Source: Leucoraja ocellata (taxonomy: Eukaryota). From it: DNA of 64,000 nucleotides. Below, piece by piece: positions 803 to 32,009 of the stretch (positions are counted from its first letter, which is position 1; the number at the start of each line of letters is the position of its first letter). A program made the translations under genes and the position numbers. The notes beneath the pieces are model-generated. The model did not search any database. It saw only the letters and a program-made list of their open reading frames with translations, and was not told where the DNA came from. The stretch lies in the NCBI GenBank assembly GCA_036785375.1, contig JAWMAR010000710.1, positions 310,001-374,000 of the forward strand, given 5' to 3'.

Positions 803-1139
803 CTTTGATCCCAAATATTTGATATTGTTTCAGGATTTGCTTCCTCGGCTGTGTTTTAGTCAAAGTGAAGAATCCCGCCCATTTAAATGCTTGTTTTTTA
901 ATGTCAGTTTACAAGTACTAGCATCCACACCCACCTCCTGGTTCTTGTCTCTGTCTCTCCAGCCATCGCCCCACTGGATGGCCCAATGCTTGTCCGCTCT
1001 GCTGCCAGTTAACACTGTCTGGATTCCCTGCCCTGAGTGTGGTTCCCATTCCCAAACAATGACGTTGCTCCAGGATTTTCCGGTCCATTTAACTTAATGC
1101 TGCCTCCATTATCCACAAAATAAATCAGATTTCTCTTTT
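803..1139 (-). pseudogene. V-like first Ig domain exon (D1) of the - strand paralog, with two frameshifts and no canonical Cys pair
   Basis: Acceptor ctttccaacag, donor AAAG|GTGAGT, 337 nt (339 minus two 1-nt losses). Reconstructed: KKRNLIYFVDNGGSIKLNGPENPG/SNVIVWEWEPHSGQGIQTVLT...CKLTLKNK/FKWAGFFTLTKTQPRKQILKQYQIFGIK. Confidence 0.65.
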
Positions 1140-1706
1140 CTGTTGGAAAGAGGAGCAATGAAGGAATTTAGAACACATTTCCTCCACCCCATGTCAGCAA
1201 TTTAAGATTTTGAATTCCATTCATTTCCAGAAAGCTTTGACCTTCCTCTGAAAGACATAAAGTGCTGGAGTAATCAGCGGGTCAGGCAGCATCTCTGGGG
1301 AACATGGATAGGTTACAATTTGTGTCAGAACCCTTCATCAGACAACTGTGAATCCGAAGAAGGTTCCTTACCTGAAATGTCACTTATCCATATTCACCAG
1401 AGGTGCTGTCCGACCTGCTGAGTTACTACAGCACTTTGTTTTTTTTCATTCCCTGTGAATCATTGTCTGAGAAATAGATTGTCGGAAGTTGGATAAGGGA
1501 GTTCAGTATTACGCCTGCCCATGCCCAGGTCATAGGTCACTAGCTATAAAGTTTCGGCAACAGTGGTGCTGCATTGTGTGCAGACTTGTGTTTCGTCCGT
1601 GGTCGGGGTCGGAGTGCTCTTGTTGCTGCTGGGCCATCCCATCCACGGTGTCCCATCCGTGTCCGGAGATGTCCGGGGTGGCCTTGAGCTGGCGGTGCGG
1701 CCTTGG

Positions 1707-1892
1707 ACTTTCAGCCGTGTGGGTGGGGGGGGGGGAATCATGGACGGTCCAGTAGCGGTTCTGCAGCGCTTGCGGTTCGGCAGCGTTGGTGGTTGCGGGG
1801 GTACGGGTTCAATCCTGGCAGCAAACGAGACGGGGTTATCCAGATGAGAGCTGGTCCAGTCTTCTCCCCCCCCCCACCCACACGGCTGAAAG
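1707..1892. repeat. ~30-bp inverted repeat (ctttcagccgtgtgggtGn...Cnacccacacggctgaaag) in intron 1 of the - gene
   Basis: Arms at ~1707-1737 and ~1862-1892. Homology with the paralog intron stops at the right arm, consistent with an insertion. Confidence 0.6.
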
Positions 1893-1977
1893 CAAGATTG
1901 ACAAAAGGGTGCGGGTTTACATGGACAATATTAAATTAAAGCATGGTGATTGTGACCGGTAAAGAGAAAGCACTTAC

Positions 1978-2074
1978 TCTGAGTTGAAACGGGTCGAAGC
2001 AGGAAAACAAAGTAACCGAACATCAAACCAATTGGCAAACTTCTGCAGATGAACCTCGGCTTCATTTTGTGCAT
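1978..2074 (-). CDS. Leader exon of the paralogous Ig receptor gene: MHKMKPRFICRSLPIGLMFGYFVFLLRPVSTQ
   Basis: Open hydrophobic leader with phase-1 donor CAGA|GTAAGT. Homology to the + gene (31753-31990) extends through the 5' flank and the first ~85 nt of intron 1. Confidence 0.8.
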
Positions 2075-2954
2075 TCTCTGTTTGGAAATAATGTGCAGTT
2101 TTAGACTTTGATCAGTAAATTGATAGTTGCCAAATGTTTTATTGAGTATAGCCAATAAAACAGAAACTTCGGCCTCATTTTGTGGATTCCCTGTGAGAAA
2201 TAACTTGCAGTTTTAGACTGAGCCTATCTGAGACACATATCTTCAGCACATTTGGACTACAAGTTGATCGGACACTGAAGGTGGCAGCACAAGTAGATAG
2301 GGTAGAAAAGAATGTGTATGGTATGCTTGCCTTCAATGCTAAGGCCATTGAACATCAGAGTCAGGAGTTCATGATGCTACTCCAGAGGACTGGTAAAGAA
2401 AAGAAGTTGAACATTTCTCATTTTTAATGTTTCCATTAAATGTGGACATTTTCATGCCATCCTGAATTATCCTTCAACTGACCCAATTGTGAGCCACTCC
2501 AGAGTCACCCACATTATTGTGCCCCATGGTCATGTACAGAACACACTGTATAAGGATCGCAGGTTGTCTCTGCTTGAGGAGGCTGGTGATACGGAGACAG
2601 CATTCTGTTTACTTGTTTCTAAAGACAAATCTTCAAATGCATTATTTTTGTTCTGGTGCTGCACACTGTGGGTCAAAGGCTGGACAATGTGGACAGGAAA
2701 ATTGCCCCATGTCCCGCACACTGTTACTGTGCTGAGGAATAAAACAACTATGTGACAAAGAGAGGTCCATCTAGGAATGAGGCTGATTGACCCACTGCAG
2801 ACATTGAGGACTGAGTCTGGTGGGTCACCCCTCATACAATGGAAGAGATATCACCCCGGGGGGGGGGGGGGGGGGGGGTGCAAATGACAGTCATGGGTGT
2901 ATTGTGTAAAGATGGGTGGAAAGACTACTGAGTGTGACACTATTGAATGTATAG

Positions 2955-5900
2955 CAGGCAGGAATGTATTCTGGCAGGCAGGTTTGTCACTGCTACACGG
3001 GTGGCTTTAAACTGAATAAGGGGGGTGGGGTGTTGAATGGGACAGTGGAGGATGGAGTTAAAGGGAAAGGGTTTCTTAAATGTGTGAGCGTAGAGACCGA
3101 AGGGTGTAAAATGAGGGTAGAAGAAATAGGTAGCAAGGTGAAAAGTAAAAGTGGCAGGCAGACAAAACCAGGGCAAAAATCAAAAAGGGCCACTTTTCAA
3201 CATAATTGTGTAAGGAGTAAGAGTGTTGTAAAAACAAGCCTGAAGGCTTTGTGTCTCAATGCAAGGAGCATTCGTAATAAGGTGGATGAGTTGAATGTGC
3301 AGATAGCTATTAATGACTATGATATAGTTGGGATCATGGAGACATGGCTCCAGGGTGACCAAGGCTGGGAGCTGAACATCCAGGGATATTCAATATTCAG
3401 GAGGGATAGACAGAAAGGAAAAGGAGGTGGGGTAGCGTTACTGATTAGAGAGGGGATTAATGCAATGGAAAGGAAGGACATTAGTTTGGAGGATGTGGAA
3501 TCGGTATGGGTAGAGGTGCAAAACACTAAGGGGCAGAAAACGCTGGTGGGTGTTGTGTACAGGCCACCTAACAGTAGTAGTGAAGTTGGAGATGGTATCA
3601 AACAGGAAATTAGAAATGCGTGCGACAAAGGCAAAACGGTTATAATGGGTGACTTCAATCTACATATAGATTGGGTGAATCAAATTGGCAGGGGTGCTGA
3701 GGAAGAGGATTTCTTGGAATGTATGCGGGATAGTTATCTAAATCAACATGTAGAGGAACCAACGAGAGAGCAGGCTATTTTAGACTGGGTATTGAGTAAT
3801 GAGGAAGGGTTAGTTAGCAATCTTGTTGTACGTGTCCCCTTGGGCAAGAGTGACCATAATATGGTTGAGTTCTTCATTAGGATGGAGAGTGACATTGTTA
3901 ATTCAGAAACAATGGTTCTGAACTTAAAGAAAGGTAACTTTGAGGGTATGAGACGTGAATTGGCCAAGATTGACTGGCAATTAATTCTAAAAGGGTTGAC
4001 GGTGGATATGCAATGGAAGACATTTAAAGACTGCATGGATGAACTACAAAAATTGTTCATCCCAGTTTGGCAAAAGAATAAATCAGGGAAGGTAGTACAT
4101 ACATGGATAACAAGGGAAATCAGGGATAGTATCAAAGCGAAGGATGATGCGTACAAATTAGCCAGAAAAAGCAGTATACCGGAGGACTGGGAGAAATTCA
4201 AAGACCAGCAGAGGAGGACAAAGGGCTTAATTAGGAAAGGAAAAATAGATTATGAAAGAAAACTGGCAGGGAACATAAAAACTGACTGCAAAAGTTTTTA
4301 TAGATATGTGAAAAGAAAGAGATTAGTTAAAACAAATGTAGGTCCCTTGCAGTCAGAAACAGGGGAGTTGATCATGGGGAACAAGGATATGGCGGACCAA
4401 TTGAATAACTACTTTGGTTCCGTCTTCACTAAGGAAGACATAAATAATTTGCCGGAAATAGCAGGGGACCGCGGGTCAAAGGAGTTGGAGGAATTGAGTG
4501 AAATCCAGGTTAGCCGGGAAGTGGTGTTGGGTAAATTGAATGGATTAAAGGCCGATAAATCCCCAGGGCCAGATAGGCTGCATCCCAGAGTACTTAAGGA
4601 AGTAGCTCCAGAAATAGTGGATGCATTAGTAATAATCTTTCAAAACTCTTTAGATTCTGGAGTAGTTCCTGAAGATTGGCGGGTAGCAAACGTAACCCCA
4701 CTTTTTAAGAAGGGAGGGAGAGAGAAAATGGGGAATTACAGACCAGTTAGTCTAACATCGGTAGTGGGGAAACTGCTAGAGTCAGTTATTAAAGATGGGA
4801 TAGCAGCACATTTGGAAAGTGGTGAAATCATTGGACAAAGTCAGCATGGATTTATGAAAGGTAAATCATGTCTGACGAATCTTATAGAATTTTTCGAGGA
4901 TGTAACTAGTAGCGTGGATAGGGGAGAACCAGTGGATGTGGTGTATCTGGACTTCCAGAAGGCTTTCGACAAGGTCCCACATAAGAAATTAGTATACAAA
5001 CTTAAAGCACAAGGCATTGGGGGTTCAGTATTGATGTGGATAGAGAACTGGCTGGCAAAGAGGAAGCAAAGAGTAGGAGTAAACGGGTCCTTTTCACAAT
5101 GGCAGGCAGTGACTAGTGGGGTACCCCAAGGCTCAGTACTGGGACCCCAGCTATTTACAATATATATTAATGATCTGGATGAGGGAATTGAAGGCAATAT
5201 CTCCAAGTTTGCGGATGACACTAAGCTGGGGGGCAGTGTTAGCTGTGAGGAGGATGCTAGGAGACTGCAGGGTGACTTGGATAGGCTGGGTGAGTGGGCA
5301 AATGTTTGGCAGATGCAGTATAATGTGGATACATGTGAGGTTATCCATTTTGGTGGCAAAAACAGGAAAGCAGACTATTATCTAAATGGTGGCCGATTGG
5401 GAAAGAGGGAGATGCAGCGAGACCTGGGTGTCATGGTACACCAGTCATTGAAGGTAGGCATGCAGGTGCAGCAGGCAGTAAAGAAAGCGAATGGTATGTT
5501 AGCTTTCATTGCAAAAGGATTTGAGTATAGGAGCAGAGAGGTTCTACTGCAGTTGTACAGGGTCTTGGTGAGACCACACCTGGAGTATTGCGTACAGTTT
5601 TGGTCTCCAAATCTGAGGAAGGACATTATTGCCATAGAGGGAGTGCAGAGACGGTTCACCAGACTGATTCCTGGGATGTCAGGACTGTCTTATGAAGAAA
5701 GACTGGATAGACTTGGTTTATACTCTCTAGAATTTAGAAGATTGAGAGGGGATCTTATAGAAACTTACAAAATTCTTAAGGGGTTGGACAGGCTAGATGC
5801 AGGAAGATTGTTCCCGATGTTAGGGAAGTCCAGGACAAGGGGTCACAGCTTAAGGATAAAGGGGAAATCCTTTAAAACCGAGATGAGAAGAACTTTTTTC

Positions 5901-6144
5901 ACGCAGAGAGTGGTGAATCTCTGGAACTCTCTGCCACAGAGGGTAGTTGAGGCCAGTTCATTGGCTATATTTAAGAGGGAGTTAGATGTGGCCCTTGTGG
6001 CTAAGGGGATCAGGGGGTATGGAGAGAAGGCAGGTACGGGATACTGAGTTGGATGATCAGCCATGATCATATTGAATGGCGGTGCAGGCTCGAAGGGCCG
6101 AATGGCCTACTCCTGCACCTAATTTCTATGTTTCTATGTTTTTT
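2955..6144 (+). mobile_element. CR1 LINE, 5'-truncated in ORF1, intact ORF2, (TTTCTATG)n tail
   Basis: APE and RT ORF plus 3' microsatellite tail. The empty site is visible in the duplicated copy at ~21130 (gaatgtatgg|acacaaagag); possible TSD tatag at 2950-2954 and 6145-6149. Confidence 0.95.
2964..6047 (+). CDS. CR1 ORF2: apurinic-like endonuclease plus reverse transcriptase
   Basis: Uninterrupted 1027-codon frame with CLNARS, ETW, GDFN, SDH (APE) and PGPD, NYRPVSL, DFQKAFD, GVPQGSVLGP, FADD (RT). The true start may be slightly downstream. Confidence 0.93.
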   Translation: MYSGRQVCHCYTGGFKLNKGGGVLNGTVEDGVKGKGFLKCVSVETEGCKMRVEEIGSKVKSKSGRQTKPGQKSKRATFQHNCVRSKSVVKTSLKALCLNARSIRNKVDELNVQIAINDYDIVGIMETWLQGDQGWELNIQGYSIFRRDRQKGKGGGVALLIREGINAMERKDISLEDVESVWVEVQNTKGQKTLVGVVYRPPNSSSEVGDGIKQEIRNACDKGKTVIMGDFNLHIDWVNQIGRGAEEEDFLECMRDSYLNQHVEEPTREQAILDWVLSNEEGLVSNLVVRVPLGKSDHNMVEFFIRMESDIVNSETMVLNLKKGNFEGMRRELAKIDWQLILKGLTVDMQWKTFKDCMDELQKLFIPVWQKNKSGKVVHTWITREIRDSIKAKDDAYKLARKSSIPEDWEKFKDQQRRTKGLIRKGKIDYERKLAGNIKTDCKSFYRYVKRKRLVKTNVGPLQSETGELIMGNKDMADQLNNYFGSVFTKEDINNLPEIAGDRGSKELEELSEIQVSREVVLGKLNGLKADKSPGPDRLHPRVLKEVAPEIVDALVIIFQNSLDSGVVPEDWRVANVTPLFKKGGREKMGNYRPVSLTSVVGKLLESVIKDGIAAHLESGEIIGQSQHGFMKGKSCLTNLIEFFEDVTSSVDRGEPVDVVYLDFQKAFDKVPHKKLVYKLKAQGIGGSVLMWIENWLAKRKQRVGVNGSFSQWQAVTSGVPQGSVLGPQLFTIYINDLDEGIEGNISKFADDTKLGGSVSCEEDARRLQGDLDRLGEWANVWQMQYNVDTCEVIHFGGKNRKADYYLNGGRLGKREMQRDLGVMVHQSLKVGMQVQQAVKKANGMLAFIAKGFEYRSREVLLQLYRVLVRPHLEYCVQFWSPNLRKDIIAIEGVQRRFTRLIPGMSGLSYEERLDRLGLYSLEFRRLRGDLIETYKILKGLDRLDAGRLFPMLGKSRTRGHSLRIKGKSFKTEMRRTFFTQRVVNLWNSLPQRVVEASSLAIFKRELDVALVAKGIRGYGEKAGTGY

Positions 6145-9100
6145 TATAGACACAAAGAGCGTTTGTGTTAGTTTTGTGTAGAAATATGGAACTGCAGATG
6201 CTATTTTACCAAGGAAAGACATAAAATACTGGAGTAACTCAGTGTGTCAGGCAGCACTCCTGGAGAACAAGGAGAGTTTCGAGTTGGGACCCTTCAGACT
6301 AGTTTCGTATATATGTTTTATTCTGAAATAAAGTTTATTTTTGAATATTAAAAATGTGAGGCTTGAAATTCAGAGAAATGTTCAAAGCTGCATGAAGAGC
6401 GGTCTTGCAATTTAACCACAATGATTTGTCTATTCTGAGCTCTGTGCTGTTTCACTTCCTGTTGTTTATCTCAACTAAATTTCACAATGTGTAAATAAAC
6501 TTCAGAAGTGTGAAGAACAAAGAAAACATCAAACCATCCCCAAACCTATTGAAACAAGCAAAAGAGAATTGGGGGAGCATTATTTGTCACTTTGAGCCTG
6601 TTCCATCATTCAAAACAATCTCATATTCCAATTCTCTCCCGTTAAATCTTGATGCATTTTATGTCAAATAAATCTATCCCCTAGAGTCAGTGACCTGCCA
6701 TCCAACAATTCTGGGTATGGATTGTGCTTGAATATTGTGGATATATTTTCTAGCACCGATGCAGTCATCAATGTAATGGGGATAGAGTTTGGGGATAGGA
6801 CCAGTGTACGCCTGGAACACAATGTATCTCTCATGTCTTTATCTCCAGGCTGTGAAGATCTTGGTGCAACTCTGTGACGTTAGGCTTGGAGAACACCAAA
6901 TGACATAGGGAAAAACTTATAATTGTGAAAATGTTTGCTGAAGGTTCTACCTTGAGTGAAATTGAGAACTCAGGAGAAGATTGCTCTTAATATTGGACAT
7001 CCTTTGTAAAATTTTAATAGCTTGATTATCATATGCAGCTCATTTGTGACCTCCTCAGTCCAACCTCCACCATGATCTGATGCAATTGAATATAGGTTTG
7101 AACTATCGGACCAGCTACAGCACGAACAGGCAAGAATAATGATCGTTCCCTTTATTACAAAACAAGCGATTCTGTTTGTGCCATTATCATAGACATTTCA
7201 AACATCACGCAGTCATTTGCTTGAACATGTGTTACAAGAAACAATTCTAAGTTCAGTTTTGAATAGCATTAATGATACTTGCCTTTGCCCAGGCTGGTTA
7301 GCACTCAGCAAACGCTTTTCTCTTTACCCCAGAAACTTGACACTGAACTAAACTGAGTTGAACATGAAGGGACAAAATATAGGGTTCAATCCTGACCTCG
7401 GGTGCTCTCTGGGTGGAGATAGCACGCTCCCTGTGGCCACGTGGATTTCCTTCAGGTGCTCTGGTTTCCTACCACATCCCACGAATGAGCGGGGTTGCAG
7501 GTTACTTGACCTCCATAATTTGTCTGGAGTGTGTAGGGAGTGGACGGGAAAGTGAGATAACAGAACTAGCGTGAACGGGTGATCAGTGGTCGGCGTGAAC
7601 GGAGGGTTGAAGGGCCTGTTTCCATGCTGTATCTCAAAACCAAACTAAATCAGATCACTACGGATGCAAGAAGATTGACATACAATCATCATTACAAACC
7701 AATAGATTCTCTCATTTCCCATTGCTGTTGACATTTTTTATCCTCCAAAAAACTTTTTTTTCCTCATTTCACATTTAAATCTTTTTATTTGAATTTCACA
7801 GCAATTTGCATACATACAATGATAACAGACAGTGACAGTCGGCATAATCGTGCAACAGTATGTAAGCGACCCTCAACGCCCTTACCCTTACCCACCTTCA
7901 ACCCACCTGAATCAGGTCGGAACCAAACGGGGACAAACAACACTCACATACATACACAACCACACAAATATGGTAAGATAAACGAAACAAAAAGTACTAA
8001 ATAAAAAAAAAAAAAAAAGGGTCACTAATAAGTAAATAAGTAGGCAATTAAATAATTCAGTGTGGGGGGGGGGGGGGGGGTTAAGGGGAGAGCAGCTGCA
8101 GTAGAGCAGAACAATGGTGGAAAGCGTTCAGTCCTCTTCCGAGTCCGGGGACAAGTTGAGAGAGTTAACAAGTTCAAAGAAAGGGTTCCATGTATCTAGG
8201 AATGTCTTGGTAGAGCCTTTGTGAGAGAACCTAAGTTTTTCAAGCTTTAAATTGTAAAGCACCTCCTTAATCCAGCGGGCGTGTGTCGGGGGACAGGGGA
8301 GCCTCCAGTTAAGCAAAATCAGTCTCCGGGCAAACAAGGTTGTAAAAGCTAGGACCCGTTTCACCGCAACAGAGAGGTTGGTGTTGGGAGGGGTACCAAA
8401 AATGGCTGACAGTGGGTTTGGAGGAATAGTCTGGCCGTAGGCTCTGCTTATCAAGTCGAAAGCACTCCTCCAAAAGGCTGCTAGCTTAGGGCAAGACCAA
8501 AACATATGGCTATGGTTGGCAGGGGATTGATTACATCTGTTGTAGGTGTCCCTAACAGCGGGGTAAATTCTAGATAATCTTGCATTTGTGTAGTGGACTT
8601 TGTGAAGGACTTTGCATTGGATTAGGCCATGATGGGCACATATGGATGAAGAATGGATCAAATCCAAGGCAGAGTCCCATTGCTGGTCTGTTAGTTTCGT
8701 ATTCAGCTCACCCTCCCACGCAGCTTTTAATGAGGTATGAGGCTTCAATATAACCGACCCTAACGAGCTATACAAAACAGAGATGCATTTCTTCCGGTTG
8801 GGATCTAGAGCTAAGATGGTATCGGTCAGGGTTTCAGGGGGGCGATTTGGGAAATGGGGGAATGTCTTCTTCACAAAATCCCTAATCTGGAAAAAACGAA
8901 AAAGGTGGGAGTTTGGGAGGCTGTAGTTGGACGAGAGCTCCGCAAAGGACGAAAAGATGCCATCCTTGTATAGGTTTTTGATACTACTGATACCGTTGCT
9001 ATGCCAGGTTTTGAATGCGGGGTATGTACTTGAAGATTTAAAGATGTGGTTTTTAAGCACTGTGGTCAAGATGGAAGGGCCTTGTAAACCAAAGTTTTTC

Positions 9101-11117
9101 CTGAGTTGACTCCATATCTTGAGCGAGAGGGACGCAATTGGGCCTGCACCCACAGATGTTATAGGAAGGGGGAGTTGGGAGCATAGGACAGACTGCAACG
9201 GGAGATGTGAACTCGCCTTTCCCATGTGTACCCAGGTCGGTAGGTGGTCGCAATCATCATTCATCCAATACAGGAGTTTTTGCAAGTTAGCTGCCCAGTA
9301 GTATCGCCTAAAATCAGGAAGTGCCAATCCACCGTCACTCTTAGGAGGCTGCAGTATCGCCTTTCGAATTTTAGCCGGTTTGCTACCCCATAAAAATTTA
9401 GATATTGTCCTTTCTAATTTATCAAAAAAAGATTTAGTGATAAGTATAGGGACGTGCTGGAAAAGATACAGGAATTTGGGTAAGACGACCATCTTGACCA
9501 GATTTATCCGGCCCATGAGGGATAGCGGTAAAACTGACCAGTGGTCAAAACCTCTTTCAGCTTTCTCAACCAGAGGCAGAAAGATTGTGCGGAACATATC
9601 AGATAAGGGTGTTGTGATAAAGACGCAAAGGTTGCGAAACCCGTCCTCTGCCCATTTGAATGAGGTTAAAGAGCGATGGAGCTGCTTAGCCAATGAGTTA
9701 ATCAGTAATAGCTCACTCTTTTGGTAGTTAAGTTTATTACCAGAATACGCACCAAACCATTCTAAAATATTCGTAATCACAGGGAGAGAGCTGACTGGGT
9801 TTGAGATGTACAGGAGCAGGTCATCCGCATACAATGAGACTTTATGAGTTGTGTCGAACCATGTAATACCTTTAAAGCCCTTCTCTGAGCGTAACCAGAC
9901 CGCCAAGGGTTCTATCGTGACAGCAAACAGGAGTGGTGATAACGGGCAACCCTGTCTGGTACCTCTTTGAAGGGGGAAGTGGGGCGACAGTGTGTCGTTT
10001 GTTTGTACTGAGGCAACCGGGGACGAGTATAATAGACTGACCCAAAGAATAAAACTGTTACCGAGGCCAAACCTGTCCTTCGATGTCGAGGGAGACCACT
10101 ATCTCCGGGGTCTCACTACTCGGTGAATGGATGATGTTAAGGAGACGCCTAGTATTGTGGGAAGACTATCGGCCTGGTATGAACCCTGTTTGCTCTAACG
10201 AGATAATAGAGGGCATCACTTGTTGAAGACAGAGCGCAAGGGCTTTAGAGAGGATTTTGAGGTCCACATTCAGGAGTGAAATTGGTCTATAGCTACTACA
10301 AAGCAGGGGATCTTTCTCCTTTTTAAGAATTAGGGAGATAGTAGCCCACGACAAGGTGGGCGGTAAGCGACGATGCAAAAACGCCTCATTGTACATATCT
10401 CTCAGGACTGGTGCGAGGAGAGCAGAGAAAGCTTTGTAATATTCTGCAGTGAAGCCGTCAGGGCCGGGTGACTTTCCGCTTTTCAGCGATGTGATGGCTG
10501 CTTGGATCTCAGCAAGAGTTATGGGACCACCCAAGTCTCTCGTGGCTTCATCGTCAATTCGTGGAAATGTCATACTACTGAGCATGTCACCTGCAGTGGG
10601 AGGACAATCGGAAGCGTATAGTTCAGCGTAGAATTTAGCAAATTTAGCCCACCCACGACAGATCATAGTCAAACTTCGGGACATTTCAGCACTTGAAGAG
10701 CTGATGAAAAAAATCAAATAAGGAGTGAAGATGACATTTGGAAACGACTTTATCAAACTCCTCCAGGGTTATCCCTATGAGATCGTGGAAAAGAGAAGAA
10801 AGCTCTCACAGACAAGACAGATTCTCCATGGAGTTAAAGATATCAGATGTGACGTTTTTTATCCAGCCAGGATGCGCATTACTTTCAAGGGAAAAGAGAA
10901 AACTTTCACTAATTCGGACGCATCTTATAAATATGCCCAAGAGATTGTGGCAGAAACAGAAGATTAATCAAGGCAGCGGGACGACATGGACAAATTCTTT
11001 CCTTTTATTACTTCACAGAGAACACCTGAAGATAAGGGAAGAAACACCATTCTCTAAAAGTTTAAAATGGAAGAGCATTTTCACGTGCACTGGTCTAGAC
11101 ACCTTATCTCCTTTGGA

Positions 11118-11917
11118 GGACAAAACACCAAACTGAAAGTTAACTCCCAAAATAACATCCTCCGGAAGCTGACCAACTCCAAATGGGGAGCCACAGCACA
11201 CACATTAAGATCTACTGCTCTGGCCCTGTGCTACTCCTCTACGGAGTATGCGTATCCTGTTTGGGAGAGATCATCCCATGCCAAGAAACTAGACCCAGCA
11301 TTGAATAACACCTGCCGCTCAATCACTGGCTGCTTGAAGCCCACCAACATAAACAACCTGCACCTCCTCGCTGGCGTTGCCCCTGCCGATGTGAGACGGG
11401 AAGTCGCCAGCCGAGTAGAGATGACCAAGGCCACCAGTGATGAACGCCACCTCCTCTACGGACGTGTACCCCCAGCCCAACGGCTGAAGTCCAGGAGAAG
11501 CTTTCTCAGCCATGTCCAGCCTCTAATAGCATCACGGGAAGAAACCAGACTCCAACTATGGACAAAAAGGCTTGAGGACGACCCCCCTCCTACTGACATG
11601 AGTATCCCTCCTTCTGAAGCCCTCCCTCTGGGCTCAGAAGCACCATGGGTCCAGTGGAAGATGCTCAACCACCTGAGAACAGGAACAGGGTGATCAAAAG
11701 CTGCCATGGCCAGATGGGGCTATGAAACTGGCCAAATCACCTCTGAATGTGGAGAAGAGGACCATACAATGCAGCACTGCCTTGTCTGCCCCCTACTACC
11801 CAACCAGTGCAGCCCAAAGGATCTTGCAGTGTTCAATAAAAACGCAAAGGACTGTCTAAAGGAATGGGAAACTGTCATATAACCAACCAGCTTCAAAGAC
11901 ACGGAAAGAAGAAGAAG
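11118..11917 (+). mobile_element. 5'-truncated Vingi/Ingi-like non-LTR retrotransposon
   Basis: WGATAHTLRSTALALCYS...PVW motif, C-terminal CCHC-like segment, (GAA)n tail, and 12-bp TSD atctcctttgga (11106-11117 / 11918-11929). Confidence 0.8.
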
Positions 11918-12434
11918 ATCTCCTTTGGATGCTTTGGATTTCAACTCAAGGACATTCTTTGTTCAAAATGAAAGAAAGACTGATAAGCAACGCAGAGACG
12001 AACAGCAGAGCCGAATGTGAAAAATATCACAAGGACAAATGGCGGTTAAAATGGCTATCTTAAAATAGCTTTACAAAATATAGAGAATTAACAATACTAA
12101 TATAGAAATATAAGTGGAAACGTAAATGTAATAATGTGTTAAAAAGACTGACTAGCTCGTATATAGAGCGAGACAATTAAGCAGGGATAAAGAAATAATA
12201 AATAACAAATTTTAGAATCAACGTAGATAATACTGAAAGTTTAAGTGCTATGTAGTTTGTGTGGGGAAGGGAGGAGACTCAGGCACCTGGCATAATTCCA
12301 GGAGCCTGATTCTGGTTAACCCTTTCAGCTAACAGCTTACTATTATCAAAGGTATAACGGTAGATGAAAGTGTTAGATATATAAATTTCACAGTAGCTGA
12401 ACACAAGATCTGATAAGTCTGAATGAAATATATA

Positions 12435-20630: not shown

Positions 20631-20696
20631 TTTAGCGCTAACGGCAGGTACTTGGGAAATGCGGTAACTCGTGAAGATCTTTCAACATGTTGAAAA

Positions 20697-23600
20697 ACTG
20701 TGCCCCGTGGTCATGTACAGCAGAGACTGTATAAGGATGGCAGGTTGTCTCTCCTCGAGGACACTGGTGATACAGAGACATCATTCTATTTACTTTTTTC
20801 TGAAGACAAATCTTCAAATGCATTATTTTTGTTCTGGTGCTGCCCATTGTGTGTCAAAGGCTGGATTATGAGGACAGGAACATTGCCGCATGTCCCACAC
20901 ACTGTTACTGTGCTGAGGAATAAAACAACAATATGACAAAGAGAGGTCCATCTAGGAAAGGAGCTGCCTGGCCCCCTCCAGACATTGAGACTGAGTCTGG
21001 TGGGTTACCCCTCATACAATGGAAGGGATATCACCCCAGGGGGGAGGGGGGGGGGGGGGGGGGGGAATGACAGTCAAGGGTGTATTGTGTAAAGATAGGT
21101 GGAAACACTACTGAGTGTGACACTATTGAATGTATGGACACAAAGAGTGTTTGTGTTAATTTTGTATAGAAATGTGGAACTGCAGATGCTGTTTTACTAA
21201 GGAAAGACATAAAATACTGGAGTAACTCAGTGGGTCAGGCAGCATTCCTGGAGGACAAGGATAGTTTTGATTTGGGACCCTTCAGACTAGTTTCGTATCT
21301 ATGTTTACTTCTGAAATAAAGTTTATATTTGAATATAAAAAAAATAAGGTTTGAAGTATGCAAGGATTCTGCCTTTCCCCATATCACATTCAGGACCTGA
21401 TGCAAAATTCAGAGCAATGGTCAAGGCTACATGAAGAGCGGTCTTATAATTTAACCACAATCATTCATCTATTCTGACCTCTGGGCTGTTTCACTTCCTA
21501 TTTTTTTATCTCAACTACATTTCACAATGTGTAAATAAACATCAGAAGTGTGAAGGACAAAGAAAACATCAAACCATCCCCAAACGTATTGAAACAAGCA
21601 AAAGAGAATTGGGGGTGGATTATTTGTCACTTTGAGCCTGTTCAATCATTCAAAACAATCTCATATTCCAATTCTCTCCAGATATATTTTGAAGCATTTT
21701 ATGTCAAATAAATCCATCCCCTAGATTCAGTGACCTGCGATCCACCATTTTCTGTGGGGTGAATTTCAATGGCTCACTATATTCTCAATGAAAAAAATTC
21801 TCAGCACCTAAATGTCTCACCCCTTATCTTGAGTCCAAAACCCCTTGTTCCAGATCCTAAGTCACTGGAAATATCGTCACGTAATAGTCTGTCTAGCTCT
21901 GCTTTGAATTTTGTTTAATTTGGAGAGGTCGTGTTTAAGTCTTCCAAACTCCAGTGACTACTGGCTCAGTTAGCTCTTCCTCTCCTTACACATTAGTCCT
22001 GCCATGCCAGGAATCAGTCTGGTCAGCCTTGGCTGCATTATCTCTATGGCTAAAAAACCCTTTCTCTGGTAAGAAGAGCACAAAGACATGTTTGGAGAGA
22101 CATGGTCCAGGCGCAGTCAATTGTGATGGGGTCAGTTGGACATGTTGGTCAGCATGTGTGCATTGGGTCAATGTGTCGATTGAGGGGGAGATGAGATGAA
22201 TTATGAAGAAAAAGATTCAGGAGCTGCGGAAAAATATCAAAACAGAGGGTGAAGCAGCAATAAAAATGAATTGTATTTCTCTGCAGAACTCACACAATCT
22301 GGGGGAATTGAGCTGTTAACTCGGATTAAGGAAGGAGACGGATTAGATTATTGTGACGATGAGGGATGACACTAACTCCTGAGCTGATGATGAGCGGCAC
22401 TTTGTGATTCCCTCCAGAATTTTTGCTTATGTCAATGTTTTTGGGTGTGGGCCTCAGTGCTCAGGCTTCCATTTTTAACCCATGAGGATGTGAACATCCT
22501 TATTTCACTGAGGTGTTTAATAAATAATGTAAATGATAGGAGTAGGCCTCACAAATAACGAAGGACCAGCAATGTATTTCCAATTTATGATGGTGACTAA
22601 CTGGGTCAACTTGTGCCACTCCGCTAACTTGACCAAGCAATTCTGGGTATGGATTGTGCTTGCATATTGTGGATATATTTTCTAGCACCGATGCAGTCAT
22701 CAATGTAATGGGGATAGAGTTCGGGAATAGGGCCAGTCTACTCCTGGAATACAATGTATCTCTCGTGTCTATATCTCCAGGCTGTGAAGATCTTGATGCA
22801 ACCCTGAGTTAGCCTAAGAGAACACCAAATGACATCGGGAAAAACTTGTGATTGTGAAAATGTTTGATGACAGGTTCGACCTTGAGTGAAATTGAGAACT
22901 CAGGAGAAAATTGCTCTTAGTATTGGACTTACTTTGTAAAATTGTAATAGCTTGATTATCACATGCAGCTCATTTGTGACCTCCTAAGTCCAACCTCCAC
23001 CATGATCTGATGTAATTGAATATCGGTTTGAACTATCGGACCAGCTACAGCATGAACAGGCAAGAATGTTGACCGTACGCTTTATTACAAAACAAGCGAT
23101 TCTGTTTGTGCAATTATCATAGACATTTCAAACATCACACAGTCATTCGCTTGAACATGTGTTACAAGTAACTATTCTAACCAGTTGTGAATAGCATTAA
23201 TGATACTTGTCTTTCCCCAGGCTGGTTAGCACTCAGCAAAAGCTTTTCTCTTTACCTCAGATACGTGACACTGAACTAAACTGAATAGAACTGGAAGGGA
23301 CACGATTTATTCCCAGACGTTGTGAAGGTCTTGGTGCAAACTGTACGGTTTGATTTGGAGAACACTGAAAGTTGCAGAAGAAATTAGATGATCATGAGAA
23401 TGGTGACTGGTGGTTTTACTTTGTGTGAAACTCAGGTGATAATTATACTCAATATTCAAATAACTGAATAATACAGCATTTTATGATCACATCTGTTCGT
23501 TTGTGTTCTCCTCAATCCAAAACTCACATTGTTGTAAACTGCCAAACCACCCACACCATAGTGGCACAAATGTCAAAGCTGCTGCCTCACAGTGCCGGAA

Positions 23601-25567
23601 ACCAGGGTTCAATCCTGACCTCGGGTGCTCTGTAGGTGTAGATAGAACGCTCCCTGTGGCCATGTGGATTTCATTCAGGTGCATTAGTTTCCTACCACAT
23701 CCCACGAATGAGCGGGTTGTAGGTTACTTGACCTCCATAAAGTGCCTGGAGTGTGGGGAGTGAATGGGAAAGTGAGATTGCAGAACAAGAGTGATACGGG
23801 TGATCAGTGGTCGGCGTTGACGGAGGGTTGAAGAGCCTGTTCCCATGCTGTACCTCAAAACCAAACTAAATCAGAACCTCACGAAAGATGCAAAAAAAAA
23901 GACACATACTCATCATTACAAAACAATAGATTCTCTCATTTTCCATTGCCATTGACATTTGTTATCCTCCAATAACCTTTAGAAAAATGAGGTTCCATAT
24001 CTCAACGCATCCAATGCATGTTTGAGCTCAGTAAATTCCCATCTTACTTTGCCGAAATAAGGTTTTACAAGATGGGATTTTACACTGATGCAAACGCTTT
24101 CAACAGAAGTGATGTCTGAACCCTGAGCAGGAGAGGAAGAGGATGGTCCTGTAGTTGTAACGGGTATAGCTTGGACCCAATAGCAGCACAGAATCAGGCA
24201 GGTATAATGGGTAATGAGCTTTATTACGATACTGTAACACAGAGTAGTAACACAGGAATGGGTACACCGTCCTCACACAGAGGCTCAGGATTGAGCGAGG
24301 GTTCCAAAGAGGGGCAGGCAGGAGACGTAGTCGGGGTAGCGGAAGGTCCGGTAACCAGGAGATCCAACACACGATGCAAACAAACCAGCGAGGGACAGAC
24401 GAAAGGAGAGTCGAAGCCAGTCAGGAAGTCGAGGAGCCGTTGCAGGGATACACCAAACAGCCCAGGAGAGAGGCAGACAGAAACCAGGAGATACGGGGCG
24501 AAGGCCGTGGTCAGGGACAGAAGGCAGAGGTGATATCCGGGAAGACGACAGGATGGAATGGTCAGGGGCAGGCAGGTTCAAATCTGTGTAGACAGTTGAG
24601 AAACCGCTGGAGAGTCTTGCATGAATGCTGAGAACAATCTGGCACTGTGTGAACGGTGAGGAGAGTCTATATAACGGGTTAATAGGTGATCAGAGGCAAC
24701 TGAGTGCAACAGGTGAGGAGAGTTAGGCTGATGAGAGGGGAGTGGCAGGCGTGGAGAAGGAGGGACTGGTGGAAAAGTACTGGGAGGTGAAGTGGATGAG
24801 AATGAGGAGAGGGCAGACTGTGACAGTAGTTTCATAAGACACAGCGTTAGTTATTGTGCAGAGTGAGATTGGGGAACTCAATGTGTCGCCGTGCTTAAAG
24901 CTTTGCTGCCCAGTCTCTGGACTCATTCACCAGTCTCTTCCCACAAGGTAGGCGACCTTACTACAGGTTCACTTCAGGAAAAGGAGTGGTTTAAATGGGA
25001 TCTAGAAACGGAACTCCGTGTTAAATAATTTCCAACGTGTGATATGTCACTCCTACAACCATTTACTAGACTGATACAGTGTGTTTTGATTTAGATTTTG
25101 CAAGGACATAGAAACTTAATTAATAATGAAGAGAGATACAAAATGCTGGAGTAACTCAGCAGGACAGGCAGCATCTCTGGAGAGAAAGAATGGGTGATGT
25201 TTCGGAACGAGACCCTTCTTCAGACCCAGACTTCATCGACCCATTCCTTCTTCCAAGAGATGCTGCCGGTCCCGCCAGGTTACTTTTGTGCCATATTCGG
25301 TATAAAGCAGCATCTGCAGTTCCTTCCAACACAAAACGTTATCAATGTATTTGTGTCTCCGTTGTTTCCACTAGAAACTTAATGAAGCTAAATTAGCACC
25401 ATCTACCATTTTACCCCTTTGGGCTTTCCAATTTGTTACCTGGTCAATCTAATGTTTCCATGCCAATGTGGTTTTATTTTTCCCATTTCTCCGGCAATCC
25501 TCTGGGACTGTTACCTGCTCAATTAATTGACTGACTAGTTAGTTACAAATGAGTTAAAACCACTCTG
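20697..25567 (+). repeat. Intergenic direct duplication, copy B
   Basis: Colinear with copy A. It retains ~0.9-kb and ~0.3-kb segments absent from A and carries its own solo LTR. Confidence 0.9.
24156..24825 (-). mobile_element. Solo LTR (Gypsy-like), 670 bp
   Basis: TG...CA termini, 5-bp TSD gtagt (24151-24155 / 24826-24830), absent from copy A at ~18412. TATA-like and AATAAA motifs lie on the - strand. Confidence 0.9.
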
Positions 25568-27034
25568 CTGAGAAGCAGGAAGGAAGTGGGTCAAGAATTT
25601 AAATGTCGGCGTACAGATGAGTCGTTTCAGTCAAGGCAAACCGTGGTTTAAAATGTATCCAGAAACTGAACAATGTTGGATGTCCATTAAACTGATTTAT
25701 CACTTGTTCAATCAGCTTGGTCCATTTTAGATTTTACAAGTGCATACAAACTTTATTAATTTTGTTTTGTCTCCTTTATTTCCCCCGTAACTGAATGGAG
25801 GGTGTTTCTCACAGCTAAATGACCAGCATATGCCAGTTTACAACTGGTTTCCTAGTCAATCTAAATTAAATATTTATTTTCCTGTTTCGCCGACAACTTC
25901 CTGGGACCTTCTGAGAATATTTAATGTCCCTTCCATTCTGTTGCCTCTGTTCAGTGACTCAATAGCGAGGTCTAATTTAGTTCATACCATTTATCAAGTC
26001 ATCGTAAGTAATTGGATCAAAAATTTAAAGGCGGAGTTCAGATGAGTGATTTCGGACAAGGCAAACCGATAGCGGTTGAATATAGTCGTGAAATCCCAGA
26101 TTACAGAAGTGACAATATTCCAGTTACCAAGTCCACCGAGCAAATGTAATTTCCCCGTGTAATTGTGGGTGGCCAATTCTACAGTGGCCCAGGGTCAGGA
26201 GTTTCAAATTGGCTGTACTCAATACAACATTCACCCAACTACAGGCCTGTACGGAGCTTTTCAAAAAGGGGGGTGGCATGACAGGATTACAAAAAACTTA
26301 ATGTAAAACAATGTGCGTGCTGCGCACATCACGAGCGCGAAGCGTGAGGTCCCTCGATGCCAGGGTCCAGGGCCCTGGAAGCTCAGGGGTTTTAGATGCT
26401 CTCTGATCCATTCTGAACCTTATTTTAGAGCATTTTTGAACCAAATCTATGACCAATAGTTCAGAAATTAACAGGTATCTGAGAGGTAGCTTTTTCACAC
26501 AAAGGGTGCTGGGTTTATGTAACGAGCTGCCAGAGGAGGTAGTTAAGGCTGGGACTATCCTAATGTTTAAGAGGCATTTGGACACGTAAATGGATAGGAC
26601 AGGTTTAGATGGATATGGGCCAAACGCGTGTTAGTGGGACTAGTTTAATTGGACATGTCGGTCGGTGTGGACAAGTTGGGCTGAAGGGCCTGTTTCCACA
26701 CTGCATCATTCTATGACTAAAAAGTGACGAAGAAAAATGCATGTAGATAAGTTGAGCAGATTTGAAAGAGGAGTGAAATGTAAAGGCAGAGAGAGGTTTA
26801 TGGGTGGAAAGGAACATAGGAAAGGAGGGGAGGGAGAGTGGGCTTGGGCAGATGGGTGAAGGGAAAATAGTCACAAAGTGCTGGAGTAACTCAGTGGGTC
26901 AGGCAGCATCTGCAGAAAATATGAATAGGCGACGTTTCACAGAGTGCTGGAGTAACTCAGCAAGTCAGGCAGCATCTGTGGAGAACATGGATAGGTGACA
27001 TGTAACTGAGTGCTGGAGTAACTCAGTGGGTCAG

Positions 27035-28119
27035 ATTCAGATTCAGATTCAATTTTAATTGTCATTGTCAGTGTACAGTACAGAGACAACGAAATGCATT
27101 TAGCATCTCCCTTGAAGAGCGACATAGCAAACGATTCGAATAAAAAAAAAATAATAAGTGTCCGGGGGGGGGGGGGTGATTGGCAGTCACCGAGGTACGT
27201 TGTTTAGTAGAGTGACAGCCGCCGGAAAGAAGCTGTTCCTCGACCTGCTGGTTCGGCAACGGAGAGACCTGTAGCGCCTCCCGGATGGTAGGAGGGTAAA
27301 CAGTCCATGGTTGGGGTGAGAGCAGTCCTTGGCGATGCTGAGCGCCCTCCGCAGACAGCGCTTGCTTTGGACAGACTCAATGGAGGGGAGCGTGGAACCG
27401 GTGATGCGTTGGGCAATTTTCACCACCCTCTGCAATGCCTTCCGGTCGGAGACAGAGCAGTTGCCATACCATACTGTGATGCAGTTGGTAAGGATGCTCT
27501 CGATGGTGCAGCGGTAGAAGTTCACCAGGATCTGAGGAGACAGATGGACCTTCTTCAGTCTCCTCAGGAAGAAGAGACGCTGATGAGCCTTCTTGATCAG
27601 AGTAGAGGTATTGTGGGTCCAAGAGAGGTCATCGGAGATGTTGACTCCCAGGAACCTGAAGCTAGAAACACGTTCCACCTCCGTCCCGTTAATGTGGATG
27701 GGGGTGTGCGTGCCGCCTCTGGACTTCCTGAAGTCTACAATGAGCTCCTTGGTCTTCTTGGAGTTAAGGGCCAGGTTGTTGTCAGCGCACCATGCTGCTA
27801 AGTGCTGGACCTCCTCCCTGTAGGCCAGCTCATCGTTGTTGCTGATGAGGCCAATCACCGTTGTATCATCTGCATACTTGATGATGGTGTTAGTACCATG
27901 TACAGGTGTGCAGTCATAGGTGAAGAGGGAGTAGAGGAGGGGGCTCAGCACACAGCCCTGAGGAACGCCGGTGTTCAGGGTGAGGGTTGAAGAGGTGTGC
28001 TTGTCTAACCTCACAGACTGGGGTCTGTTGGTTAGAAAGTCCAGTATCCAGTTGCAGAGGGAGGGGTCGATGCCCAGGTTACCGAGTTTGGTGATCAGTT
28101 TTGATGGAATAATGGTGTT
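27035..28119 (-). mobile_element. Rex1/Babar-type LINE, 5'-truncated, RT C-terminal part open (27187-28014)
   Basis: [24 protein letters not shown] and [11 protein letters not shown] motifs; (GAATCT)n tail; absent from composite copy 2. Confidence 0.9.
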
Positions 28120-29589
28120 GCAGCATCTCTGGAGAAAAGGTATAGATTATATTTCAGGTCAAGACCGTTCTTCAGTAATATTCATGATGTGACATGCATA
28201 GACATTCCTGAATGTTACCCAAACCATTGTGAGCTACTTTGTTACGGTGCTTGCCCTCTCCTATAATGTCTCTGCTGCCTTGTGTGATGCAGGACAGGAC
28301 ACAAGCTTTGGGGCATGGTGTGAAGCTGTTGCCGTCTGTCCCAGCCTGGTAAAAACCTGGATGGAGTGGATTTGGAGAGGATCTTTCCACTAGTGGGAGA
28401 GTCTAGGACCAGTGGCCACAGCCTCAGAATTATAAGACATTCCTTTAGGAAGGAGATGAGCAGGAATTTCTTGTCAGAGGGTGGTGAACTGTGGAATTCA
28501 TTGCCACAGACAGTTGTGGAGGTCAAGTCAATGGACATTTTCAGGAGATGATTGATAGATTCTTGATTGATATGGGTGTCAGAGGTAATGGGGAGAAGGC
28601 AGGAGAATGGGTTTGAGATGGAAAGATAGAGTCATAGGGTGATACAGTGTGGAAACAGGCCCTTCGGCCCAGCATGTTCCATCTGCACTAGACCCACCTG
28701 CCCACGTTTGATCCATATCCCTCCGAACCTGTCCTATCCATGTACGTGACTAACTGTTTCTTAAATGTTGCGATAGTCCCTGCCTCAACTACCTCCTCTG
28801 GCAGCTTGTTCCATACACCTACCACCCTTTGTGTGAAAAACATACCCCACAGATTCCTATTAAATCTTTTGCCGTTCACCTTAAACTTATGTCCTCTGCT
28901 CCTCAATTCACTTACTCTGGGCAAAAGACTGAACCATATCTATTAAAATCATGATTCTATACACCTCTATTAGATCATCCCTCAACCTCCTGTGTTCCAT
29001 GAAATAGAGTCCCAGCCTACTCAACCTCTACCTATAGCTCTGGCCCTCTAATCCAGGCAACATCCTCATAAATCTTCACTGTACCCTTTCCAGTTTGATG
29101 ACATATTTCCTATAACATGGTGCCCAGAACTGAACACAATACTCTGAATGCGGCCTCACCAACTTCTTATGCAACTGCAACATGACCTCCCAACTTCTAT
29201 ACTCAGCCTGACCCGCTGAGTTACTCCAGCACTCTGTGAAACGTCACAGAACAGGGCAAGATTAGCAAATATGCTGATGATACAGAAGTGAGTGGTTTTG
29301 CAGATAGTGAAGATGGTTGTGAAAGATTGCAGCTGGATCTGGATCAATTAGCCAGGTGGACAGAGGAATGGTTGATGGTTGCATGGTTCCTTGAAGGTCG
29401 TGTCGCAGGTATATCAGGTGGTCAAAAAGTATTTTGGCACTTTGGCCTTCATCAGTCAGAGTATTGAGTATAGAGGTTGTGAGGTCATGTTGCAGTTGTA
29501 TAAGACGTTGGTGGGACCGCATTTAGAATATTGTGTTCAGTTCTGGGCACCATGTTATAGGAAAGATATCAAACTGAAAAGAGTACAGA

Positions 29590-30705
29590 TATCCCCATCC
29601 TGGATCATTCCAATCAGGGTTGTGTCATCCGCAAACTTGAGAAGCTTGACAGAGGTGTCTGTGGAGGTGCAGTCATTGGTGTGGCGAGAGTAGAGTAGAG
29701 GAGAGGGGAGAGTACGCATCTTGCGGTGCTCCTATGCTGAGCATTTGCATGTCCAAGATATGCTTTCCCGCCTCACATGCTGCTTCCTGTCTGTCAGAAA
29801 GCTGGTGATCCACCGACAGAGGGGTTCAGGCACAGTCAACTCAGAAAGTTTGGAGCGTAGTAGCTCTGGCACAATGGTGTTGAATGCAGAGCTAAAATCA
29901 ATAAAACAAAATCCTCGCATAGGTCCCCTGGCAGTCTAGGTGCTGGAGGATGAAGTGCACGCCCAGATTGACTGCGTCATCCACAGATCTAATGGCCCAA
30001 TATGCAAAATGTAGATGGTCCAGCAGAGGGATTGTGATATTTTTCAGCTTGGCCAGCACAAGCCTTTCAACGGTCTTCATGACTACAGAGGTCAGTGTGA
30101 CAAGCCTGTAGTCATTAAGACCAGTAATCCTTACCTTTTGGGTACAGAGACAATTGTGGAAACTTTAAAGCAGGCAGGGACAGTGTATATTTGCAGGTTA
30201 AAAATGAGTAATTGGGTGTGAAGTGGTGATTGGAGTGGGGTGAGTGTAGAAGGGCCCAGTCTTTGCAGACTGAGGTCAGGCTGTGGGTGTGTGTGAAGTG
30301 TTGGTTTGGGTGGGAAATGGTCCACTCTTACCATACTAGAGTCTTGCCTTAAGTAGGTGTGAAGTGGTGAATGGGAAGGAGAGAGTGCAGGGTCCATTCT
30401 TTGCAAACTGGGGTCTGGCTGTATTTGTTGGGGAAGGGGTACCAGGGTTACGTTTCTGATTTTCAAACCTGCAGTAAAACTCATTCAGGTCATTCGTCAG
30501 CTGATGATTGCACAAAGAGCGGGGGCTTACCTCTTACAGCTGGTGATTTTCTTGCATGCCCTTTCAAACTGAAGATGAGTCATTAGCTGAGAACTTGCTC
30601 CTCAACTTGTCATAGTACCTTTATTTGGCAGCTCTGATTCCTCTTCTCAGCTCTTTATCGATTAGGCTAGCTTTTAACTCTTTAACGATTAGGCTATCGG
30701 CTTGA
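29590..30705 (-). mobile_element. Decayed Rex1/Babar RT fragment (counterpart at ~39728-40750)
   Basis: VPACFKVSTIVSVPK, RSVDDAV and [11 protein letters not shown] motifs with frameshifts. Confidence 0.8.
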
Positions 30706-30720
30706 CGCTTATTTGCCCCC

Positions 30721-30754
<34 letters not shown>

Positions 30755-31184
30755 ATCTCGAAAAAGAAATGTTACATCTGTATATAATGATCCCATTAAA
30801 ATGTGTATTTATGTCACAAACTATGGAATTCATTTTGTATTGTTACCAAGGAAAAGAAAGCAGTTCCAATTGTTTGATATTATTTGATATTTTTTAATAT
30901 TATTCATATGGAGAAAATATTATAGCTCTAAAACCTACCTTAATTTTGCAATCTCACTAAAGATAATCCCCCTCTCTCTCTCCCCTCCCCTCCCCATCTC
31001 TCTCTCTCCCCTCCCTTCCCCTCTCTCTCCCCCCCTCCCCCTCTCACATTCATTTTTGTATTGTTATCAAGGAAAAGAAAGCAGTTCCAATTGTTTGATA
31101 TTATTTGATATTGTTTAATATTATTCATATGGAGGGGGGGGGGGTACGAAGATGATGTGGCGCGGGCAAAGCGGGCGGGGGGAT

Positions 31185-31530
31185 GAATGTGGCGTGGGCC
31201 CAGCGGGGGTGGTGTGGGCCCAGTGGTGGTCAGCGAGGTTGGCATGGACCCAGCAGGGTGGTGTGGGCCCAGCAGGGTTGCGAAGACCCAGCGGGGGACA
31301 GCAGGGATGGCCTGGACCCAGCAGGGGGTGGCGTTGGCACAGCGGGTGGCATGGGCCCATTGGGTTGGCATGGGCCCAGCGGGGGTGGCGTGGGCCCAGC
31401 AGGGTGGCATGGGCCCATTGGGGTTGGCATGGGCCCAGCGGGGGTGGCGTGGGCCCAGCGGGGGTGGCGTGAGCCCAGCGGGGGTGGCGTGAGCCCAGCG
31501 GGGATGTGAGGGGAAGATGGCTTGGGCCCC
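31185..31530. repeat. GC-rich ~20-bp minisatellite (GGGCCCAGCGGGGGTGGCGT)n, short array
   Basis: Tandem units visible directly; they generate spurious Pro/Gly/Trp-rich ORFs. Confidence 0.92.
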
Positions 31531-31817
31531 GGTGGCGAGGGGAGCGGGCACCGCCACAGCGGTGTCCGGTGTTGGGGTTACAGCCGATCAGTTCAGATTC
31601 AGCCACTCCCACCCGGCGACGGGAGAACAGAGAACTGGCCGTTTCCAAAGTGGAAACGATTTATTTTCCCCGTTTTTTTTGGTGATTTTTTTCTTAGGGG
31701 GAAAAAGGGTGGTGCGGTCGCACCCAACGCACCCCCCCTTCGAACGGCCATGTAACTACCAATTTACTGATCCTTTGCGTAAACCAGCACGTCATTTCCA
31801 AACAGAGATTGCACAAA

Positions 31818-31905
31818 ATGAGGCCAAGGTTTCTCTGCGACTGTTTGCCAATTGGTTTGATGTTCGGTTTCTTTGTTTTACTGCTGTGACCTGTTTCCAC
31901 ACAGA
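31818..31905 (+). pseudogene. Leader (signal peptide) exon with premature stop: MRPRFLCDCLPIGLMFGFFVLLL*PVSTQ
   Basis: Hydrophobic leader, phase-1 donor CAGA|GTAAGT at 31906, and clear homology to the - strand leader at 1978-2065, which has CGA where this copy has TGA. Confidence 0.8.
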
Positions 31906-32009
31906 GTAAGTGCTTTCTCTTCACCGGTCACAATCACCTTGCAGTATGTTATCATTGTCCGCGTAAACCCGCAACCCATTGTCAATCTCGCTTTATTCTC
32001 CACGTCCCT

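Follow-up and report, generated by a model that had tools for sequence, protein, structure and literature searches.

The 64,000-nucleotide stretch of the Leucoraja ocellata genome analysed here (the window: contig JAWMAR010000710.1 of assembly GCA_036785375.1, positions 310,001 to 374,000) contains parts of at least two genes for receptors with immunoglobulin (Ig) domains, on opposite strands. In the numbering of the receptor family described below their Ig exons correspond to D1 on the minus strand and to D7 and D8 on the plus strand. The minus-strand gene is represented by its 5' flank (2066..2157), an open leader exon of 88 nt for the signal peptide (1978..2065), the start of intron 1 (1889..1977) and a 337-nt exon with AG/GT ends for the cysteine-less V-type domain D1 (803..1139). 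The leader exon of the plus-strand copy, also of 88 nt, occupies positions 31818..31905.

Inverted leader homology and the plus-strand gene

The preliminary description of this DNA, made from its letters alone, had proposed that leader, 5' flank and start of intron 1 are present in two inverted copies. Self-BLAST of the window bore this out, aligning 1889-2128 with 31994-31754 in inverted orientation (83% over 241 nt, E 2.5e-65). The leader exons are identical at 73 of 88 nt and are closed in both copies by a phase-1 GT donor, the beginning of the minus-strand intron is homologous to 31906-31994, and the minus-strand flank corresponds to 31753-31817 plus the displaced segment 26208..26241 of the plus strand. 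Assignment of this segment as the detached flank of the plus-strand leader also held: it matches the minus-strand flank in 28 of 34 columns with a local score of 41, the runner-up among 1,200 scanned 200-nt windows reaching 28. Between the two parts of the flank lies a composite insertion of 5.5 kb (26242..31752) with imperfect inverted ends and a target-site duplication of 5-6 bp, situated ~65 bp upstream of the plus-strand ATG. Altogether the homology covers ~270 nt and ends ~90 nt inside intron 1. Besides, the 5' part of the minus-strand leader (2052-2107) has a tandem partial duplicate at 2165..2219 on the same strand (84% over 56 nt, self-BLAST). The arrangement earlier called head-to-head is a divergent orientation without a shared promoter: the leaders are separated by 29.7 kb of repeat-rich DNA (44% self-repeat), and with this spacing a bidirectional promoter serving both of them was ruled out. 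An isolated duplicated fragment was likewise rejected as a reading of the pair.

Two frameshifts in the minus-strand V-like exon and a nonsense codon in the plus-strand leader had been announced as well, and all three are there. Codon 24 of the leader is TGA in the plus-strand copy (31887-31889) and CGA in the minus-strand one, while the D1 exon is split into three frames by single-base losses near 1070-1072 and 890-899, so that a hidden Markov model (HMM) of D1 matches segment 1139-803 in three frames.

On the plus strand the 3' half of a receptor gene was found in eight exons with canonical splice sites and a single open frame. They encode the V-set domain D7 (34196..34522, Pfam V-set 30.6 bits, 96% to the L. 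erinacea protein P0017), the C2-type domain D8 with a WxC motif (35335..35604), a transmembrane segment with an uncharged core (46467..46574) and a tail distributed over five exons. The first of these contains a YxN motif (47476..47574), the second one tyrosine motif (54175..54252), and the third an immunoreceptor tyrosine-based inhibitory motif (ITIM) of the form IxYxxI (55997..56053); they are followed by a short fourth exon (56776..56804) and by the terminal coding exon, where the second ITIM (VxYxxV) and the stop codon are located (56937..57005). The joined product is identical to that of L. erinacea LOC129701493 (P0017) at 335 of 344 amino acids.

Exons for D1-D6 are expected in the place where the assembly has a gap of 200 N (33143..33342). 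Neither tblastn nor HMM search found a match to these domains on the plus strand of the window, and no decayed D1-D6 exons were found in the window either. Since D1-D6 are missing on this strand, and in orthologs D7 is preceded by D5-D6 (P0017) or D4-D6 (P0035), the gap likely hides at least six exons. Because it sits where six Ig exons belong, the plus-strand leader may come from another gene, and its broken copy and the intact V-C2-transmembrane-ITIM part could then be separate genes. In the preliminary description they formed a single dead gene. The premature stop is present in the assembled sequence of its leader; it is the unity with the downstream part that is put in doubt by the gap, the open exons and the close identity to P0017. 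According to the one-gene scheme, leader and downstream exons were inactivated together by TGA and the upstream insertion, possibly with loss of D1-D6. It is in line with the common strand, with compatible phase-1 splice sites and with the model of the ortholog P0017, which likewise has no leader. However, all eight downstream exons are preserved to the extent given above, the orthologs do have Ig domains ahead of D7, the gap may be of any size, and the nearest leader belongs to another L. erinacea gene, P0005 (25/29 amino acids). We therefore give this scheme slightly less than an even chance. Directly to the right of the gap, segment 33343-33520 looks by eye like a decayed integrase piece of a long terminal repeat element; a second assembly gap of 179 N is located at 62639-62817.

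The minus-strand gene, judged by similarity to other skate genes, is a mosaic. Its leader shares 25 of 29 amino acids with that of L. erinacea P0005, while its D1, with X placed at the breaks, is closest to D1 of A. radiata P0034 (85%) and L. erinacea P0011 (82%). Together with the restricted length of the leader homology and its end soon after the splice site, this combination of a P0005-type leader with a P0011/P0034-type D1 would fit gene conversion confined to a tract, or transfer of a fragment, in which case the two copies would not be sister genes. An old duplication followed by erosion of the intron would look alike, and we consider conversion or transfer possible while leaning against it. 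It is compatible with the explanation preferred below and alters only the origin of the pair.

A receptor family of cartilaginous fish

A protein search with the D7 exon, limited to lengths of 190-2000 amino acids, returned 43 proteins from 19 species, exclusively cartilaginous fish. All but one are labelled uncharacterized or hypothetical (42 records), the remaining one being “obscurin-like”. In several species their LOC numbers are near-consecutive on one contig, which suggests gene clusters. The repeat unit consists of a cysteine-less V, a C2, a V and a C2 domain and is usually present twice, so that most members have eight domains; 4, 11, 15 and 16 domains were also registered, and P0034 is without D2-D5. 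WxC is found in D4 (29/30) and D8 (27/28), never in D2 (0/27) or D6 (0/31); two cysteines are present in D7 (29/31) and D8 (25/28) and none in D1 (23/25), and no domain has more than three. In spite of this, D1 in the model of P0034 folds as a V domain (VIA comparison).

The members fall into several predicted signalling classes. Most have two-ITIM tails, and some combine a charged transmembrane residue with a short tail. Among the 43 proteins, 28 carry an ITIM tail, six are truncated or have no called transmembrane segment, and nine have a charged transmembrane residue without ITIM: mid-membrane Lys in four (sawfish, stingray, sawshark and catshark) and outer-membrane Arg in five (Mobula). 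Both ITIM and Lys forms are present in sawfish. YxN, noted above in the first tail exon of the window, recurs in 22 of the 28 ITIM tails. Thus the combination by which paired receptors are recognized, i.e. related ectodomains joined either to an ITIM tail or to a charged transmembrane segment with a short tail, is found across the family and was seen outside skates. The search for charged short-tail paralogs proposed in the preliminary description was in this sense successful for the family, with four Lys and five Arg forms, and empty for skates. Two members, P0073 and P0079, have short tails ending in YxN without ITIM and represent a possible third signalling class. Two unnamed receptors placed outside the family in the tree, P0090 and P0096, have repeated V-C2 units and a tail with YxN resembling an ITAM (immunoreceptor tyrosine-based activation motif).

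Probable kinship with LAG-3 and CD4

A profile search collected 378 representatives at E <= 0.001, of which the best 150 were examined; unnamed relatives are called here CD4-, LAG-3- or DICP-like by our own reading of tail motifs and cysteines. Among the matches listed, tarpon, eels and salmonids contribute 32 proteins, 31 of them without a functional name, and five proteins of bowfin, sturgeons and paddlefish have the shark-type transmembrane Lys motif. When 52 V-C2 modules were placed in a quick tree, the family (35 rows) was separated from the CD4-like, LAG-3-like, DICP-like and ITAM-bearing rows. With a broad profile, LAG-3 was third in PDB (E 8e-15), behind titin and NCAM1; the single V exon gave generic Ig matches only. 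By hhalign the family was aligned with a LAG-3-like profile of five sequences at 99.6%, with one CD4-like sequence at 98.5% and with one DICP-like sequence at 96.6%, the profiles being of unequal depth. The four-domain model of the relative P0034 has a predicted local distance difference test score (pLDDT) of 83.9, and its top six Foldseek matches are all LAG-3 or CD4. VIA superposed D3-D4 on D1-D2 of CD4 with Z 14.4 over 178 residues (root-mean-square deviation, rmsd, 3.6). Profile and fold searches, therefore, point to kinship with LAG-3/CD4, which are the best immune-receptor matches of the family by both approaches.

The likeness includes the V-C2-V-C2 module, as in the P0034 model (usually doubled in the family), WxC in the last C2, and the rule of one exon per Ig domain, which according to the accessible part of PMC10768021 holds for D1 of shark CD4/LAG-3. 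Unlike CD4 and LAG-3, the family is multigene, its module is usually doubled or more, it has forms with charged transmembrane segments, and its D1 and D5 are without the B-F cysteine pair. WxC is missing from D2 and D6, while the criterion given in that part of PMC10768021 is WxC in both D2 and D4. The LCK-binding motif Cx(C/H), typical of CD4 tails, occurs in 0/28 ITIM tails and in none of the tail exons of the window. Instead of the single-exon tail of LAG-3 there is a tail of five exons that contains two canonical ITIMs, and the motif (F/Y)xxL(D/E) is found in 1/28 tails. By the same published criteria identity with CD4 was rejected on WxC and Cx(C/H), and identity with LAG-3 on WxC, the five-exon tail and (F/Y)xxL(D/E). 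The CD4-LAG-3 locus is further marked by conserved synteny; in the window no additional gene was recognized.

DICPs are similar in that they are clustered V-C2 receptors, some of them doubled, with inhibitory, activating and ambiguous forms and variation in gene content, as seen in the available text of bioRxiv 10.1101/2021.06.11.448072. The same text gives four conserved cysteines each for DICP D1 and D2; the extra cysteines specific to DICPs are absent from the family. DICP-like matches scored ~55 bits, a level that most members of the family far exceeded (well above 100), and are outside the family clade; on these three counts identity with DICPs was rejected. Linkage to the MHC is a further trait of DICPs.

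According to the accessible part of PMC6795676, the elephant shark study reported several CD4/Lag3-like molecules without CxC, which may include members of the family. As far as their accessible text goes, the papers searched, including PMC6523485, PMC11372145, PMC10751288, PMC6795676 and PMC3964593, contain no description of it, subscription journals being thinly covered.

Another direction is indicated by ESM Atlas, where the structure search with P0034 gave g6f-like top rows (TM-scores 0.45 and 0.40) and the feature search with the unnamed member P0108 gave the G6B cluster and g6f-like rows (0.96). The family might then be a branch of thrombocyte receptors (G6F-like/G6B), regulating thrombocytes and not lymphocytes. 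The teleost G6F-like proteins, its nearest Atlas clusters, also have a four-Ig unit and, according to the accessible part of PMC3528668, the YxN tail motif, which in the family is found in the majority of ITIM tails. However, G6fL signals by its own ITAM (ibid.), whereas the family has ITIMs or charged transmembrane residues, and by direct reading the four tail tyrosines of the plus-strand gene in the window form no ITAM. The ITAM is a defining feature of G6fL in that source, and the family departs from G6F-like receptors in this respect. Pfam G6B (PF15096) does not rank among the 25 families with the most frequent matches in 58 members, and both TM-scores, obtained against Atlas clusters, are below 0.5. 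In our estimation the thrombocyte branch, the main rival as regards function, is rather unlikely. Teleost G6F-like genes have themselves reportedly been linked to CD4/LAG-3 (by Ohashi, in 2010).

KIR, LILR, CHIR, NITR and MDIR resemble the family by pairing of ITIM with charged transmembrane forms, by variable distal domains and by pseudogenes; they differ in domain make-up, and the cluster considered here looks smaller. Ectodomains of KIR, LILR and CHIR are all C2, whereas in the family D7 is V-set and D1 folds as V. NITRs have a V-I structure with a six-cysteine I domain, so that with three cysteines per domain at most, identity with NITR was rejected (I domain as given in the accessible part of bioRxiv 10.1101/2021.06.11.448072). 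Domains of skate MDIRs are CD300/TREM/pIgR-like, as far as the available text of PMC3031540 shows; none of the 43 matches is named MDIR, and by this description the family would differ from MDIR. KIR, LILR, NITR and CHIR, with which the cluster was compared in the preliminary description, are functional analogues only; the kinship found is with LAG-3/CD4.

Lesions, turnover and interpretation

Reality of the minus-strand lesions was checked in public contigs from 4 of 24 listed runs over positions 700-2300, using the longest records only; the best run may coincide with the source sample. In three of the four runs (X1, X2 and X3) the first frameshift is crossed by gap-free contigs that differ in 2-3 letters, and the X5 contig has one gap, whose position is not shown. 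The second is crossed gap-free in X5 and also in X1, where the shorter flank is covered by 26-35 letters; at this site an additional base is found in one X3 contig, and one X2 contig is without one further base. The same runs contain paralogs of D1 (15-17 differences per ~170 nt and one gap). Leader paralogs in the runs are neither of the window copies, with 10 differences versus 21 for the plus-strand one, and one of them, seen in three runs, has lost a base inside the leader. Since gap-free public contigs carry the frameshifts, assembly errors are an unlikely source of them. That both frameshifts and the stop codon are long-read assembly errors in two intact genes is very improbable and for the frameshifts already largely refuted: both base losses fall inside or beside short base runs, and the additional base in X3 is in its favour, but the contigs, an open 1,030-amino-acid reading frame 1 kb away and the long terminal branch of the window D1 in a quick tree (0.13 versus 0.008 and 0.029 in intact relatives) speak against it.

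Taken together, the window quite probably represents a part of a small skate cluster of paired Ig receptors with tandem V-C2-V-C2 units, related to LAG-3/CD4, its plus-strand 3' half encoding a predicted inhibitory receptor. The family is apparently an undescribed and ancient relative of CD4/LAG-3, predicted to resemble paired receptors in function and belonging to none of the families named in the preliminary description. Ligand-binding domains of paired receptors are typically under positive selection; here the variability was seen at the protein level, where the distal V domains are the least conserved. In 20 full-length proteins (column bootstrap) mean identity is 0.51 for D1 and 0.55 for D3, and 0.65-0.79 for the remaining six domains. 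In a D7-D8 tree of 44 rows, 11 Mobula/Hypanus rows form a clade with support 100/100, in which Arg-type and ITIM-type members are interleaved.

Several observations weigh against this interpretation. Transmembrane and tail classes derive from automatic gene models, and no activating-type transmembrane segment was found among the seven skate records or in the window, so that activating members, which had been considered possible nearby, did not appear there. The family clade has a Shimodaira-Hasegawa-like approximate likelihood ratio (SH-aLRT) of 94 and is not starred in the quick tree. A profile built from elasmobranchs only matched PD-L1, PD-1 and neurotrimin weakly in PDB, and neither CD4 nor LAG-3; Foldseek TM-scores to LAG-3/CD4 are low (0.23-0.32 by query); and in the VIA comparison the V domain of NITR11 ties with CD4 (Z 14.5, 120 residues, rmsd 3.0). 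Finally, in the D7-D8 tree three skate lineages are each common to two genera, and the first frameshift is common to two organism labels.

The two last points bear on turnover. Because three lineages each span two skate genera, it is slower than in clusters of the KIR/CHIR type, and with lineages persisting across genera and a lesion common to two labels it may be called moderate. The skate cluster, with 2-3 records per species and seven in all, looks small (~3-4 genes) and composed of old lineages. A multigene cluster undergoing birth and death, as proposed in the preliminary description, thus retains its basis in a clustered Ig family in which duplications are lineage-specific, pseudogenes occur, the number of domains varies and some members are predicted to be activating, and loses the rapid expansion in skates; the data fit a small cluster whose birth and death proceed at a moderate rate.

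In such a system D1 and D3, the most variable of the domains and distal V domains, would bind the ligand. From what is generally known of ITIMs, SHP-1/2 would be recruited by their phosphorylated forms, while Grb2 would be the partner of YxN. A mid-membrane Lys generally implies a DAP12-type adaptor and an outer Arg FcR-gamma, and the respective relatives would signal in this manner. Unequal exchange between repeated modules would create, recombine and kill copies. Given the kinship with LAG-3/CD4, our best guess, a tentative one, is that the ligand may be a host self marker, MHC or an MHC-like molecule. A doubtful extension of this reasoning would make the family a sister of CD4/LAG-3 that predates the divergence of sharks from bony fish, the transmembrane Lys being common to sharks, sturgeon and bowfin, and an MHC-reading “missing-self” system in cartilaginous and many ray-finned fish.

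Little is known of which germline receptors keep activation and inhibition in balance in leukocytes of sharks and skates, and the family offers named candidates with both predicted signalling forms. Its existence further suggests that early jawed vertebrates employed the CD4/LAG-3 module in a variable cluster of paired receptors, a point of relevance to the origin of the two co-receptors. The two broken copies of the window are ordinary by themselves and valuable as a pointer to this family.

A second copy of the composite element, which is likely a non-autonomous DNA transposon, lies at ~36000-41966 in the intron between the D8 and transmembrane exons (5.5-6 kb class). Both copies have imperfect inverted ends, target-site duplications of 5-6 bp and common internal pieces of long and short interspersed elements (LINE and SINE), with 91% identity over 2.1 kb. 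A tail intron harbours at ~48100-52900 a retroelement with inverted terminal repeats and minus-strand open reading frames (ORFs) resembling tyrosine recombinase, reverse transcriptase and gag, which we take to be DIRS-like. The 1,030-amino-acid frame mentioned above is a LINE ORF2 at 2955-6047 on the plus strand, presumably CR1-like and possibly belonging to a young copy.

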